From IMG/VR virus record IMGVR_UViG_2660238269_000009: a stretch of DNA of 60,442 nucleotides, one strand, 5' to 3'. A program made the position numbers. Positions 42,001-51,000 of the stretch are shown in pieces (position 1 is the first letter of the stretch; each line of letters begins with the position of its first letter). The stretch is from a virus. Its lineage: Duplodnaviria; Heunggongvirae; Uroviricota; Caudoviricetes.

Positions 42001-45000
42001 CCCTTCGCCTCATACCCGGCATCTTTCGGACGATACGGCCCCTGATAATGTTCCGCGAACAGAATGCGCTCTGTGGCGGGGAAATACGCCCTCAGGCTTT
42101 CCTTGTTGCACCCGTTCCAGCGTCCGGACGGCTTTGCCCAGATAATATGGTTCAGCACACTGAAGCGTTCACGCATCATGATTTCGATATCAGATGCCAG
42201 GCGATGGCCACAGAACAGGTAAAGACTTCCGGCAGGTTTCAGCACCCGCCAGAACTGCGCAAGACACTGGTCCAGCCACTTCAGGTAATCATCGTCGCCC
42301 TTCCACTGGTTATCCCAGCCCTCAGGCTTCACTTTAAAGTACGGCGGATCCGTGACTATCAGGTCAACAGAATTTTCGGGTAACGACCGGATAAATTCCA
42401 GGCAGTCGGCGTTGATTAACTCACAACTGGATATTTTTACAGTGTTAAGCATGGATCATTAAGCCTGTCTCTGATAGGCTCATTCTTCTTTTGCGCAAAG
42501 CAGTGGGCCTGAGGTTTGCTTGTGATCCAGACGCATGAGCAGATGGCTGGTGAGTGCCCCTAACACCCACCAGCCGCCCATTTACCACAAATAAAAAAGC
42601 CTTCATGACTGAAGGCGTCTGTAACAACCGAACTGATAGTCTGCCAGACCCGCCATAACAAGCTGGGTCAGTATTAACTGGCAGCGTTCGCGTGAAAGGT
42701 AAGTATTCTGCGCAATCTCCCCGACTGTCGCCGGTTCGGTGACGCTTAATTCATTAAACACCACTCTGGCGGTTTCGGTCATATCCTGCTGTTTCAGCAT
42801 GTCTTTTTCCCTTTTCAGGTTAACGTGACATACCAATAACTCTTGTCGAAAAAGCCAGCAAGCTGAAAGACCCGTATTCGCAACCACCAGCGCGTTTAAC
42901 GCCCTGTGTCGTTTTTCGGGCATAAAAAAACCCGCCAGTGGCGGGGATCTTTTGATAAAAACGACAAAGGCACCATTAAGGTGCCTTTTACACAGGGGCA
43001 GCAGGCTTGTCATCACCTTATTGCTACTCCTGGCTTCCAGTTCGGAAGTCTCACAAGTCCCATCAGGGTACAGCGACAGTATCAGTCAACACACTATGTG
43101 TGTCAATATAAATTCATATCGAATTCGATAATCGTTTTCGATTATCGATACAGATAAGCCATCCCTATCCCGTGCAATACCGCCCGTTTAATATTCTCAA
43201 ACTCATCTTCCGCAATCATAGGAACAATATAATTTCGCCCCTCCCAGGTTCTAGTTTTTATGCGATCCAGTCGGCTCAATGAAACCGTCATCAACATGTC
43301 ACATTTTACCCAACAAGTAATATGCTCATTACCAGGGATGGGGTTTTCTGATAACTCATGATGGCAATCTCTGCGAGGAATCGGTTCAGTAGTGCTTATT
43401 GGTACCACTGTTACCAATTGATTGTTGTGTCTGTTTCTGGACACGACTACCACTGGCCTGACCTTGACTATTTCCGGAACAACCATTCCCCGAAAATCAC
43501 ACATTAAAACAGAACGAACAGACGGCTGATACTTTAACACCATAAATCTCTTTGCCTGATAATGACGACTTGTGAACTCCACTACAAACAAAATGATTCT
43601 GCTGAACAGGCAGTTTCGCACTGTACATTATAACCTGTTAAGCCAACAAAAAAACCCGCTCGGCGGCGGGGTTTGCTTACTTTGCCATCGCGTACAAAAT
43701 CGGCAAAATATCAGATTTACATGAAATATATGCTTTTTAATCCAGTTTTGCAATATTTTGCTGTGAAAATGTGGTCTTTTGTTTTGAACGTGTTTTCGTT
43801 AAAAGCAATAAAGCTTGGCTATCAAGCTGTAGAAAAATGTGCTTCATTGCAACCCAGCGTTCAGTAAATGTCTCAGACCAGTTTTTTGATGTCACTCCCA
43901 CCAGTGATGCCAGATCCCGGTATTCATAACCTTCCCCACCAAAAAGCTCAGCTTTTACCGCTTGCGCCGCCAGCCAGATCAACTTCTTCAGACGTTCCAG
44001 CGTTTTCCCAGCTATTTTTCTGGTACCGGATTGAGTATTAAATTCATTCCACGCCCACTGCGTTATCGCAATCTGATACTCCCAGCAAATGTTTCCGCCG
44101 TAACACCACAACAACCACGCCTTCTGATGCGCTTCCAGTTCCAGAACTGCACGTCGCCATGATGATGTCGAAAACTCAACCGGACTGACCAGAGCAATTG
44201 ACGTCCCTTTCGCCAGTGATTGTTTACCCGGGATCGGTGGGTTATCCCGCGTGATCATTTTTCCGGTTACCTCATCGCGGTAACGAATTTTTTTGCGTCT
44301 GTAACGCCCTGTATCGAACAGTGCATTTTCCTGCCAGGCTTCCAGTTGGCCTTTTATCGACACACTGAGATCCGCAGTGGCAATCATGAGTTGCTCACGA
44401 ACAAACTGTAAATACTGGTTATTCATGCACACCCACCTCTGTAATTCTTATCTCCAGCCGTCCACCAGATACTGGCTGGCCACGTACAATATTGATTTCA
44501 TCAAACTGCTCATCGTCCATTAACAACCCTGCATGCGTCAGCGCATCCAGCGGCGCTTTCAGGATATTATCCAGGTCACGGCGGCGCTTATCCGGTGGCT
44601 CTGCAATCACCTTTATCGCCAGCCTTCCGGACAGGCTTAATTTCAGCCGCTGCTGGCGAACAATAAGCGCCACTGCCCGGCGATAGCGCTTTCCCTCCTC
44701 AGATATAAAATATGTGCTGCCACGACGTCGCCAGTAAGTATTCACCGTCGGTGGATAAGGCAAAACAAACTCTATACGCATCAGTAACCTCTTTTACCCA
44801 AGCACGCCGGTTGCAAAGGCGTGATCAAGAAAACGAAAAATTAACTCAACCTGAGAGCCGTACTTTTTCTCAAACTCCAGCGGGTCTGCATGAAGTTCGT
44901 TGTGATGTTCCCGGCACAACGGTAGCGTGAAAATATCGTGGGCCTTTGTCCCCATTCCCCCCTGACCATGACCAATCAGGTGATGCGGATCGTCAGCAGG

Positions 45001-48000: not shown

Positions 48001-51000
48001 TATGCTCACAACATATACAAATTTCCCGGTTAAAGCTCATCATGTTAGATAGTTTTTGCGTACGCACTATTTTTTTATGTAAACTGCGCAAAAAAGTTTA
48101 GCACCCTAAATTGTTAAGGGAAAGTTAAGGAAGTGTTAATGCTTGAGCAAACAGTAAAAAACATCAATTCACGCTTTGGCTGGCGCAACACCCGTAAGCT
48201 TCTTGGTTCATCACTGGGTGTAACGGCCCAAGGATTACCCCTTTTTATTGAACGTGTAAATAGTGTAGTTCAGCATAATCCCGACCTAAAAGACAGAATC
48301 GACGATTTCTGGAAAGGTTTAATTTTTAGCGGGAATCGATTACTTTCTATTTATAGAATCACCGATGAAGACGTAGCAAAATTACAAACAATTTTCACAA
48401 ATCAGAAAAAGGACAATAGCCCCTTCTCAGAAAAATACCCAACTCCTTTATCCAGAGAGGAGCTGTTAGTTGCTGATACTGAGCTGCATTTTGCTGAACT
48501 ACGTCAAGATATCATTCGTGATAAACAAATTGACACTGCTGTTTTTTTATCCAAAGCGTATTACACTGAAGTGATAGAGCTTGACCCAACACATCTTAGC
48601 GATGCGGGTATGGAATTACGTGCTAATGGTGGAGAAATAAAATGCAAAACACGCCAAGTCACGCAATGCTTTAATACCATCATGCTAATGCCTGCAGAAA
48701 AAATATTAATTCTTACGATTGATTTATCTATCCTTCCAAGAAGTGAATCACAGCCTCAACAATACCTTGTGGCTAAATTTATAAAAAAAGAAGCTGGCGT
48801 TATTTTAAACAATCCTCTTGAATTATTTGGTTCAATACAAGATCTTTACGAAAAAGTAGATGGCAGAATTTCTCATGTATCTTTTATCACCTCAGATGGC
48901 AATACAAGTTCTTTAAAACTCAAACCAAGTCAAAAGTGTTTGCGTCAAGATGTTTACCATCATAGTGGAGAGTCCGCAAGCCCAATATTGACAAAGTTTA
49001 AGTTGGGAAAAATTTGGGATTTACCACAAAGTTCTTCACATATTTTATCAGTAGAGTTAATATTACCAGGAAAAAGGACAATGCTTGATAATCCTAGAAT
49101 TAGGTTGCATGAAGCAATTGCGAAGAACTGTAACAACATTGATTCGATTATATTTATTGTTGAAAAAATATTGGATTCTGTTAAGTCCTGTGAAGAGAAA
49201 AGAAGAGCGAGATCATCAGGCCATAAATGAAAAAGAGTATATATCACGACATTATCACGCAAATAGAGCAGGATTTTAATGATCCTGTTCGCAGTGTGTG
49301 TCGTGATCTTTTTCTTTTTCTGGTTAGTAAAGATGCTAAAAATATCAATCACTTTACATACAAAACCCTTATCAATGGTTTAACCTATCTAACTGATACG
49401 AAAGATGACTATATCCTGCTAATAAAAGCAACTGATTATTTATCTAGCTATAAAGCACATCTATTGGATATGCATTTTCAATACATTGATAATTTAACGG
49501 AAGAACCAATACCAGTTGAAGATGATCTTATTTCCTATGCTTTAGACACAGGAAGTTTTTACCATCCAGAAACTGGCGAATTGGTTGATAATTTTAGCCA
49601 GTATCTTTATCCATACTTTACTCCTTCGAGTCTTTTGGAGAGTCTGCATGAGTGATGTAAACATCTGTACTGCAGACCTTCAATCATTAATTAGAATGGA
49701 TCCTGAATTTAGGGGAATGGTTCAAAGAAAATTAGCTGCAGACAAAAATATTTTTGTAAAGCAACTCTATGAAGATTTAGACGACGCTATTCAGAATTTA
49801 GAAAATGACAAACACTTCTATCAAGATGCTAAGTGGGGAGAGGACGAGCTAACAGCGTCGATCAAAAATTTCCTGAAAGGTAGGTTTTATGATGTTGAAC
49901 ATGATACTCAACATGGCGGTCACGTTGATTTATTAGTTAAACATCAATTCGGAAAATTCGAATGGATCGGTGAAGCAAAATTATGGAGAGGCCCCAAATC
50001 TATTCATAATGGCTGGATTCAGCTAACCGAACGTTACGGCACGGGTACGTCACGTGACGATCATGGAGGAATTCTAATTTATATAAAGTCTGACAAATCA
50101 GCAGTAAAATTCAATGAATGGAAAGAATTTTTCTCTACGACCGTTTCGGACGCAGAAATTGAAGCGGAAGGCTCTCCCCTCCGCTTTAAGAGTATCACAA
50201 AGCATCCAGCAACAGCGCTTCCATATCATGTAAGACACATGGGAGTATCCTTATACCATTACACTGGTAAAAAAACCGCTGACTCTTAACTGGTAATTGC
50301 TATATATCCAGTCAAAAAACCTAAGGCTTTTTGCAATCTTTTACGAATTGTTCCATCTGAACATCCTTGTTGCTTTGCAATAGCACGAAGAGATAAACCA
50401 ATCACGAAATGAGCAACAATTAACTCATATTCTTGTTGCTTATATCTTTCTAACATAAGGATACTAATGTCAATAATTCGCCCTTCATCATTGCTGCACT
50501 GACGACGTGATTTTTTACCATGAGGAACAACATTTTTATATTTATCAGCTATTTCCTGCCAATCAATAGAACTATTACCAGCCACAACCCAAGCCCCCCA
50601 ATCGTCTAAAATATCACATATATCAACATTACTATCCATCTGTTTTTTATTTTCTATTTTGAAATAACCAAGCAGCATTCTAGCCATTGTTGTTATTTCT
50701 ATACTTGTAACTGACTCATAAGCATGAGGAGAAACAATTCTCTCATCACTTAATGCCCAATCACTAAGGTTTGCTATTTCCAACAATCGTTCTTTAGTTA
50801 TTCCCATTATTATCTCCACCGCCCTTTCGGGCGGCCTCCTGATGATTTGAGGGTGCAGGAATCCCTCCGGTTAAGGATTTAATAAAAATCGTTTCTGATT
50901 TAAATCTTCAGTATTTAGTTGTTAGTCGGTTTATAGCCTTTATGCTTCGGCCTTATTTCTCAGCCATACACAAACCGGGCCATCTTCGGTGTCATGTATT

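Follow-up and report, generated by a model that had tools for sequence, protein, structure and literature searches.

Q proteins are textbook single-copy late switches, encoded beside the promoter that they serve, and the question raised by the locus described here is what a prophage does with two of them. The window (the whole 60,442-nt stretch that was analyzed, IMG/VR virus record IMGVR_UViG_2660238269_000009, Caudoviricetes) represents a Rac/Qin-type lambdoid prophage of Escherichia coli, arranged on the minus strand. As the original prediction had noticed, it carries two different Q-type genes about 6 kb apart: both lie on the minus strand, 5.85 kb from each other, and they belong to two different families, PF06530 and PF06323. 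The former is an extended gene encoding 177 aa, hereafter the long Q gene; the latter encodes 231 aa and occupies the canonical Q position.

We describe these genes as two Q-type units placed in series (unit 1, 48042-50925; unit 2, 43655-44432), and on balance we lean towards a relay in which the first unit would open the way to the second. Unit 1 consists of a conserved leader, a complete short-type Q domain joined to a 65-aa N-terminal module, an interchangeable set of reverse-oriented cargo genes, and an invariant 12-mer, GCGTACGCAAAA, all within the early rightward operon. The arrangement departs from the textbook in two respects: one Q subfamily is routinely split from its promoter by a bay of reverse accessory genes, and an entire lineage of prophages, among them one of the reference enteropathogenic E. 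coli (EPEC) strain E2348/69, has a longer form of this Q ahead of a second Q that is unrelated to it.

Read in descending coordinates, the direction of early rightward transcription, the prophage starts with a cro-like gene, a ydaT-like gene, a replication gene, a DUF977 gene, and two small open reading frames (ORFs), which are followed by the long Q gene. Three genes convergent with it come next, then hok/sok, the insertion sequence (IS) IS421/IS186, a rem-like gene, ydfU (DUF968), rusA, and the 231-aa gene, after which accessory genes and tRNAs precede the lysis and structural genes. The order agrees with what was originally read from the window, in that the long Q gene is followed by a reverse three-gene operon (48139-50289), a hok locus (47637-47962), and IS186 (46279-47613) rather than by an adjoining late promoter.

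Two antiterminator genes of different families

Three families of Q proteins with no relationship to one another have been distinguished: Q21/Q933W (PF06530), Q-lambda (PF03589), and Q82 (Yin et al., 10.1101/651190). Profile searches, which the original prediction had proposed for both proteins, assign the 231-aa protein to PF06323 at 301.1 bits (cut-off 25; E 6e-90; aa 6-222 of 231) and to phrog_304 (E 2e-105), and the 177-aa protein to PF06530 Phage_antitermQ at 107.9 bits (cut-off 26; E 4e-31; aa 66-175). We take PF06323 to be the Q82 family (the accession is misprinted in the preprint by Yin et al.), and this family of phage 82 Q also includes QuuQ of the K-12 Qin prophage. The features of the second unit are as follows (promoter calls throughout are consensus matches).

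43737-44432, minus strand: Q82-family antiterminator in the canonical Q position (RefSeq start at 44426), PF06323 and phrog_304
43655-43753, minus strand: Q82 late promoter unit, with -35 TTGCAA at 43753-43748, a 17-nt spacer, -10 TATATT at 43730-43725, a leader of about 50 nt, and a terminator
43670-43655, minus strand: stem of the intrinsic terminator of this unit, downstream of the leader and followed by the T run TTTTTTTG

The 231-aa protein shows no sequence kinship to the Q21 family, and a sequence search of the PDB with it gave no match. Its original description as an unrelated gene in the canonical Q position stands with respect to the position after rusA, to the terminator downstream, and to its lack of resemblance to Q21, but the protein is by no means an unknown one. 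Since it belongs to a known Q family, the original prediction, which was to fall if the protein proved unrelated to antitermination and the Q21-like gene drove the late operon, holds on this point. Full-length homologues are the annotated Q in 66 phage records, including Gifsy-1 and vB_EcoS-689R5. The downstream regions of gene copies that are 85-100% identical (from the window, E2348/69, three IMG/VR contigs, and the induced phage vB_EcoS-689R5) were aligned. Promoter, leader, and terminator hardly vary among them, and similarity stops right past the terminator, which is the signature of a Q gene moving with its own utilization site. Compared with the phage 82 Q family, the gene is likewise full-length, in the canonical position, and adjoined by a promoter, a short leader, and a terminator; nothing notable sets it apart, with a MazF-like toxin moron and about 9 kb of accessory genes lying between its terminator and the lysis genes. 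We conclude that the 231-aa gene is the late-gene switch, an ordinary Q82-family unit whose activity is predicted from sequence.

The moron is a PemK/MazF-like toxin gene (43142-43543; Pfam E 8e-14) inserted between the Q82 terminator and a second terminator at 42945-42931 (insert region 42931-43621). Also within the insert are a strong promoter-like site, TTGACA-17-GATACT (43106-43078), and another terminator (42988-42966). No gene for an antitoxin was identified, and the sequence from the terminator at 42945-42931 onward is common to other phages. The segment 43106-42931 was considered as an orphan late promoter of another Q type and set aside, as only its last terminator and the following sequence are common to phages, the promoter-like site being specific to the MazF-like insertion.

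The other gene, at the head of unit 1, comprises two features.

50286-50819, minus strand: long Q gene (GTG at 50819; likely start ATG at 50807), with the N-terminal extension in aa 1-65 and the Q domain in aa 66-177
50808-50925, minus strand: leader of the long Q gene (about 115 nt), including a GC hairpin with a GAAA loop at 50835-50818

The gene had been taken for a Q21-family homologue with an N-terminal extension, and so it proves: the PF06530 match covers aa 66-175 and the canonical relatives of about 115 aa align only there. The protein also matches sigma-70 region 4 models (Sigma70_r4_2), with a canonical helix-turn-helix (HTH), as well as phrog_79 (E 3e-33) and phrog_3323. Chains 6jnx and 6p18 of phage 21 Q are matched at E 5e-4 by the protein itself (phmmer) and at E 6e-6 by a 68-member family profile, which aligns with Q21 residues 17-99. 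The segment aligned with the Q21 torus reads WGAW...PHGKKSRRQC.NDEG; it includes the basic stretch GKKSRRQC and has Ser in the position of Thr54 (residue roles according to 10.1101/651190). Phage 21 Q (6P18, 6JNX) and the long Q thus share a Pfam family, a sigma region 4-like fold family, and an alignable torus segment. Identity, however, amounts to no more than about 25% over 80 aa, and the alignment ends before the helix-turn[loop]-helix of Q21, the HTH of the long Q being a canonical one. The long Q also has the 65-aa extension, its gene lies in an early operon, and 2.2 kb of reverse cargo separate the gene from its candidate site, the corresponding gap in phage 21 being 7 bp. The AlphaFold2 model built from the 68-sequence alignment has a mean predicted local distance difference test score (pLDDT) of 48.6, with residues 1-120 below 50 and only the C-terminal HTH above 70.

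Relatives of the long Q form two groups. The large one consists of proteins of about 115 aa whose alignment is confined to aa 66-177 (54-60% identity); the small one comprises proteins of 170-180 aa, found in E. coli and Salmonella, that match the long Q from end to end (64-95% identity). In phages such as SfII and Stx1_499, the sole Q shares 57-60% identity with the C-terminal 112 aa of the long Q. All of the 401 matches in the phage collection are short forms annotated as Q, and none covers 80% of the query. Such short forms occupy the canonical Q position in SfII, the Shiga toxin (Stx) 1a phage Stx1_499, vB_EcoS-569R4, and Stx2a_1447. The N-terminal extension has no Pfam or NCBIfam match and no tblastn match among 50,697 phage records; a HMMER search of 1.84 billion representative proteins retrieved six proteins, which are long forms, fragments, and one 193-aa protein. 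This last protein (P0125), the sole distant relative of the extension outside the long Qs, is similar in its first 60 residues and unrelated in its C-terminal part, so the extension may be a portable module.

As GTG 50819 is located inside a stable hairpin and a GGAG stands 6 nt ahead of ATG 50807, the latter is the likely start; it gives a protein of 173 aa, as in RefSeq WP_000513133.1. The leader of about 115 nt is kept in the alignment of all long-form loci regardless of the preceding gene, and the GAAA-loop hairpin at its end covers the upstream GTG. Its fold (-30 kcal/mol, z -1.75) is not significant alone. The leader could control translation, contain a processing site, or act as a promoter. 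An N/nut-like role for the GAAA hairpin was considered and dropped, given that there is no convincing boxA and that the z-score of the fold is only -1.75, and no N gene or nut site was identified in the prophage.

The cargo bay and its 12-mer

Long-form loci were gathered from RefSeq genomes, assemblies, and IMG/VR, and marker proteins were mapped on all of them; the sample is biased to E. coli and Salmonella and includes near-duplicates. The order is the same in all of the long-form loci that reach past the cargo (37/37, in E. coli and in Salmonella): DUF977, the long Q gene, reverse cargo, the 12-mer, hok, either ydfU-rusA or DUF1367-YbcO, and a gene in the Q position. The elements of the bay in the window are listed below.

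48139-49230, 49227-49655, and 49696-50289, plus strand: three genes of the cargo operon (ORFs, annotation), convergent with the long Q gene
48056-48085, plus strand: predicted cargo promoter, with -35 TTGCGT at 48056-48061 (in the 12-mer), 18 nt, and -10 TAAACT at 48080-48085, 54 nt before the cargo ATG
48054-48065, minus strand: 12-mer GCGTACGCAAAA, candidate Q-binding element (QBE) and far boundary of the cargo bay
48042-48047, minus strand: -10-like hexamer TAACAT, 6 nt past the 12-mer, tentatively a promoter facing hok

The stop codons of the cargo and of the long Q gene overlap in a shared TTAA (50286-50289), and no terminator lies between them. The three window cargo proteins match only phrog_12777, phrog_11490, and phrog_9664; they have no Pfam match, and PADLOC gave only a weak match to PDC-S54 (E 0.002). 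At least three types of cargo occupy the bay in long-form loci, namely the window trio, a 159-aa protein with a DUF6731 protein, and an NA37-like protein with a 406-477-aa protein. Most of the cargoes match no known defence system; one cargo elsewhere includes a metallo-beta-lactamase protein that is similar to accessory proteins of DRT and Lamassu.

The bay is not confined to the long form. In all short-form phages examined, a variable reverse block of two or three genes ends within about 30 bp of the Q stop codon, and the cargo of Stx1_499 is 35 and 27% identical to that of the window for two of the three proteins. The Q proteins of SfII, Stx1_499, 569R4, and Stx2a_1447 (about 113-115 aa) resemble the long Q in the Q domain (57-60% identity) and in the recognition helix CSDGTIRK, and SfII/Stx1_499-type phages also resemble the window in having a reverse bay directly past the Q stop codon and the 12-mer at its far end. 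They differ in that theirs is the only Q, located after DUF968 or replication genes, with the site followed by a leader, a terminator, and lysis or stx genes, whereas the window gene is extended and precedes hok and a second Q, and its site has no such leader or terminator.

The 12-mer tracks this Q subfamily closely. A single copy, located on the Q strand immediately beyond the cargo, occurs in 37/37 long-form loci and in 9/9 short-form loci reaching that far. The window shows the same layout of a subfamily Q, reverse cargo near its stop codon, and one GCGTACGCAAAA past the cargo; this is the single exact copy in the window, where 0.29 copies are expected at up to one mismatch. Three Rac-like loci that do not have this Q gene (689R5, Evi, and 2013C-4991) contain no 12-mer, and neither do phage 21 and phiP27, even at two mismatches. 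The core of the 12-mer is GCGTACGC, and its opposite strand reads TTTTGCGTACGC.

The role of the site is indicated by its position in the short-form phages SfII, Stx1_499, 569R4, and Stx2a_1447. Their late region comprises TAACGC, a 17-nt spacer starting with GTACGCAAAA, and TAATGT or TATCGT; past this -10 follow GTTAAGAGTGGTTACTT(T/C)GCCAC, 7-8 nt, and an intrinsic terminator, with lysis or stx genes next. The block is located about 140 nt before the holin gene in SfII and upstream of methylase-tRNA-stx2 in Stx2a_1447. Being the sole conserved non-coding block between the short Q and the late genes, it must be the late promoter region. The 12-mer therein lies in the same place as the two elements QBEu and QBEd of the curated phage 21 record, that is, in the spacer between -35 and -10. 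In phiP27 the same leader and terminator are preceded by TTGCGG-17-TATCCT with an unrelated spacer, and the recognition helix of its Q reads ISHTQILK instead of CSDGTIRK, which is nearly invariant in the 68-sequence subfamily alignment. Hence the spacer changes with the Q helix and the leader does not, which is the behaviour expected of a Q-binding element, and the 12-mer is probably the Q-binding element of this subfamily. The mapping of pR' in the Sakai Stx1 phage (PMC7547250) was considered as a parallel and set aside, since it concerns a Q933W-type unit with the promoter close to Q and not this subfamily.

More generally, a 23-nt leader, GTTAAGAGTGGTTACTTYGCCAC, and the terminator are common to late promoters of different Q types (SfII type and P27 type), with a differing -35/-10 spacer (phiP27, L052, 5240-5300; loci L049, L051, L024, L025, and L010). 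A shared leader with a differing spacer points to modular exchange within late promoters.

On the other strand the 12-mer is linked to the cargo. TTGCGT followed at 17-18 nt by a -10-like hexamer was found in 8/9 cargo types (binomial P 6e-8; five short-form flanks are partly homologous), where -10-like means A at position 2, T at position 6, and at least 4/6 matches, with a local background of about 10% per locus. As the 12-mer contains the cargo -35, a protein bound at the 12-mer would cover that -35. On the Q strand, a -10-like hexamer past the 12-mer was found in three of the four long-form cargo types.

The Q-position genes of long-form loci come from three families, PF06323, PF03589, and DUF1133, and identical long Q and cargo occur with each of these three canonical Q types. 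It is consequently the canonical Q, rather than the long Q, with which the late unit co-varies. It is therefore highly improbable that the long Q is the real late antiterminator and that the 231-aa protein stands outside antitermination. Such an assignment could appeal only to the fact that a Q acts in trans and need not adjoin its target, and it conflicts with the strong PF06323 membership of the 231-aa protein, with its own conserved promoter and terminator, with the co-variation of the late promoter with the canonical Q across three families, and with the orientation of the sole 12-mer in the window, which faces hok and not the lysis genes. The long Q moreover fails two hallmarks of a late Q, namely an adjoining late promoter with a QBE, sigma-dependent pause element, and terminator, and control of late genes.

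The DUF1133 protein found in the Q position of many prophages (L015-L022, L038-L048) gives weak matches to PF06530, so that such prophages carry two members of the Q21 superfamily. Surveys of Stx phages list Q families and note DUF1133 as Q-like by HHpred.

A recombinant arrangement delimits the unit that moves. The window cargo is 99.5-100% identical in protein sequence to that of STEC308 and CFIAFB20190172, and in the same loci the long Q is 88.7% and hok is 87.5% identical. In these two strains the long Q gene resembles other clades in its 5' half but is identical to the window copy in its 3' half, which begins at about residue 80-110. With the cargo and the 3' half of the long Q gene identical and the flanks diverged, the unit of exchange extends from the middle of the Q gene to approximately the 12-mer or hok. 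Hotspots of variable genes in temperate phages and satellites, such as the P2/P4 defence hotspots (PMC9122126), are alike in having conserved flanks around interchangeable cassettes (in the window, a cassette at 99.5-100% and flanks at 88-89% identity), and unlike in that here the flanks are a regulator gene and its candidate binding site and most cargoes match no known defence system. The position between a 103-aa ORF and hok appears in another guise in E. coli 2013C-4991 (L016, 11383-13018), where an sce7726-family gene and a convergent 'beta family' gene fill it with no long Q unit and no 12-mer; this alternative filling makes it a general variable spot.

Relay, cargo regulation, or relic

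What the long Q might do at such a site depends on what lies beyond it on the Q strand.

47997-47969, minus strand: hok promoter, TTGGCT-17-TAGAAT (promoter scan)
47637-47962, minus strand: hok/sok type I toxin-antitoxin locus (hok coding sequence 47637-47792, annotated hokD)
46279-47613, plus strand: IS421/IS186 of the IS4 family (annotation; boundaries from alignment, absent at the same place in E2348/69)
46205-46222, minus strand: intrinsic terminator ending the hok locus, AACCCGCTTCGGCGGGTT then a T run, upstream of the rem-like gene
45845-46123, minus strand: rem-like gene (annotation), delayed-early, preceding the canonical Q
44794-45843, minus strand: ydfU/DUF968 (Pfam DUF968), delayed-early, preceding the canonical Q
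44419-44781, minus strand: rusA (Pfam RusA), delayed-early, preceding the canonical Q

With the cargo convergent with the long Q gene and no terminator between them, early transcription coming from the cro side would collide with cargo transcription and have no clear path onward. In the relay that we favour, the long Q would be made from the early transcript after induction and would bind the 12-mer, occluding the cargo promoter, so that the cargo would be off during lytic growth. The long Q would probably then load onto RNA polymerase leaving the facing promoter (TAACAT, 48047-48042), and the modified polymerase would pass the hok terminator, and in the window also IS186, into rem-ydfU-rusA-Q82. 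This would amount to a relay of two Q steps, leading around a bay of genes by which early read-through is otherwise blocked. The closest parallel is the lambda cascade of N and then Q, in which an early antiterminator likewise opens the way to the gene of a second one, which turns on the late genes; the proposed relay differs in that its first factor would be a DNA-loaded Q-type protein and not the RNA-loaded N. The broader generalization, according to which a two-tier Q cascade operates in the Rac-like lineage, with an early extended Q silencing cargo, loading polymerase, and reaching the canonical Q past the hok terminator, and the same bay design, placed between Q and its own late promoter, operates in SfII-like and some Stx phages, is less likely than not and is offered only tentatively.

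A number of observations weigh against the relay, beginning with its weakest link, the Q-strand promoter: the -10-like hexamer on this strand is weak, and in one cargo type it is absent at the right distance. The 12-mer itself is largely palindromic, with an 8-bp palindrome, unlike the QBE of phage 21, which consists of two direct 8-bp repeats. Long-form loci conserve the 12-mer alone, without the short-form leader and the adjacent terminator, and the 23-nt leader was not found in the window at up to three mismatches. The functional phages 689R5 and Evi do not have the long Q unit yet keep the same hok-rem-ydfU-rusA-Q block, so the relay is not generally required. Two further points concern the standing of the gene. 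Searches of the phage collection found the long form in no sequenced phage isolate, and 3 of about 45 copies look frameshifted or truncated (L046-L048). Finally, the ratio of nonsynonymous to synonymous substitution rates (dN/dS) is 0.02-0.03 for canonical short Qs, so that purifying selection on the long Q is 5-10 times weaker.

Several of these points suit the main rival explanation, in which the long Q is a DNA-binding regulator, either a repressor or an activator, of the cargo bay only, has lost antitermination, and leaves a single true antiterminator in the window. The predicted cargo -35 within the 12-mer in 8/9 cargo types, the canonical sigma region 4 HTH, the absence from long-form sites of the leader and terminator that mark short-form late promoters, the relaxed constraint relative to canonical Qs, and the joint movement, in recombinants, of the cargo and the HTH-encoding 3' half of the gene all agree with such a regulator. 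The distribution of constraint along the protein does not. Constraint is strongest in the segment homologous to the Q21 torus that binds RNA polymerase (dN/dS 0.09-0.30), ahead of the HTH and tail (0.19-0.40) and the extension (0.32-0.58), which is unexpected for a pure DNA binder, and the whole Q domain is full-length in all clades. We regard a cargo regulator without antitermination as unlikely on these grounds.

The same substitution data bear on the original suggestion of a mosaic junction at which one antiterminator is a remnant or has been redeployed. 'Redeployed' is a fair word; a one-off remnant does not agree with a unit found at the same place in 37/37 loci, under purifying selection, and with a candidate site of its own 2.2 kb away. 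In pairwise comparisons the long Q gene has a dN/dS of 0.18-0.39; dS reaches about 0.74 for the whole gene and exceeds 1 in the Q domain. In E. coli as in Salmonella, an intact frame of 175-178 aa is preserved. As judged from these sequence comparisons, the long Q gene is not a stray remnant but is selectively maintained, less strictly than canonical short Qs. A functionless orphan, left when an SfII-like Q-cargo-promoter block recombined into a Rac-like early region and hitch-hiking since with useful cargo, would explain why no late promoter adjoins the gene, why the long form is absent from all phage isolates in the collection and present in only about 68/5426 complete E. coli genomes, why a few copies are disrupted, and why the cargo is homologous to that beside the short Q of Stx1_499. 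It would not explain dN/dS values of 0.2-0.4 under saturated synonymous change, the preservation of the frame in both genera, the conservation of the leader and the 12-mer, or the association with at least three unrelated cargo types, by which the gene is not tied to one useful cassette. An orphan is accordingly quite improbable.

Should the relay mechanism prove true, it would provide a built-in way to carry cargo that is possibly self-harmful, expressed in the lysogen and switched off at induction, and it would be the first case of serial Q-type antitermination. The literature searched gave no account of two-Q prophages, a Q-linked reverse bay, or this 12-mer, which does not prove that they are new. 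New cargo cassettes can be sought with the 12-mer and the Q gene as precise anchors, and the occurrence of the same site upstream of toxin genes in some Stx phages bears on the control of toxin expression.

The hok locus and the wider prophage

The hok assignment is backed by an Rfam match to sok (RF01794, 117 bits) at 47787-47962. The 1.3-kb IS421/IS186 element is inserted 23 bp past the hok stop codon, between hok and the hok terminator, and the same strong terminator is present after hok in E2348/69 and in Salmonella loci. The element in the window may be polar on transcription toward ydfU-rusA-Q. In unrelated prophages (STEC308, KFu021), copies of this IS family likewise separate hok from the phage gene that follows, suggesting that the 3' side of hok is a hot spot for IS insertion.

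The 9 kb around both Q-type genes are 100% identical to strains 2013C-3181 and N51, and the EPEC E2348/69 prophage, which does not contain the IS element, is 95.7% identical over 78% of the length. Rfam matches in the prophage comprise the small RNA STnc100 (37480-37692), DicF RNA (55855-55906), and three tRNA genes for Ile, Arg, and Arg (41105-41353); STnc100, DicF, and such tRNAs are typical of Qin/Rac-type and Stx-type prophages. Over 21 kb, the window differs from NZ_CP027312.1 by six mismatches and three single-base homopolymer indels (52467-52474, about 39457, and about 40531). The indel near 52474 splits the 320-aa replication gene, which encodes a helix-turn-helix protein, into ORFs 51958-52470 and 52467-52934, and represents either a sequencing error or a real frameshift.

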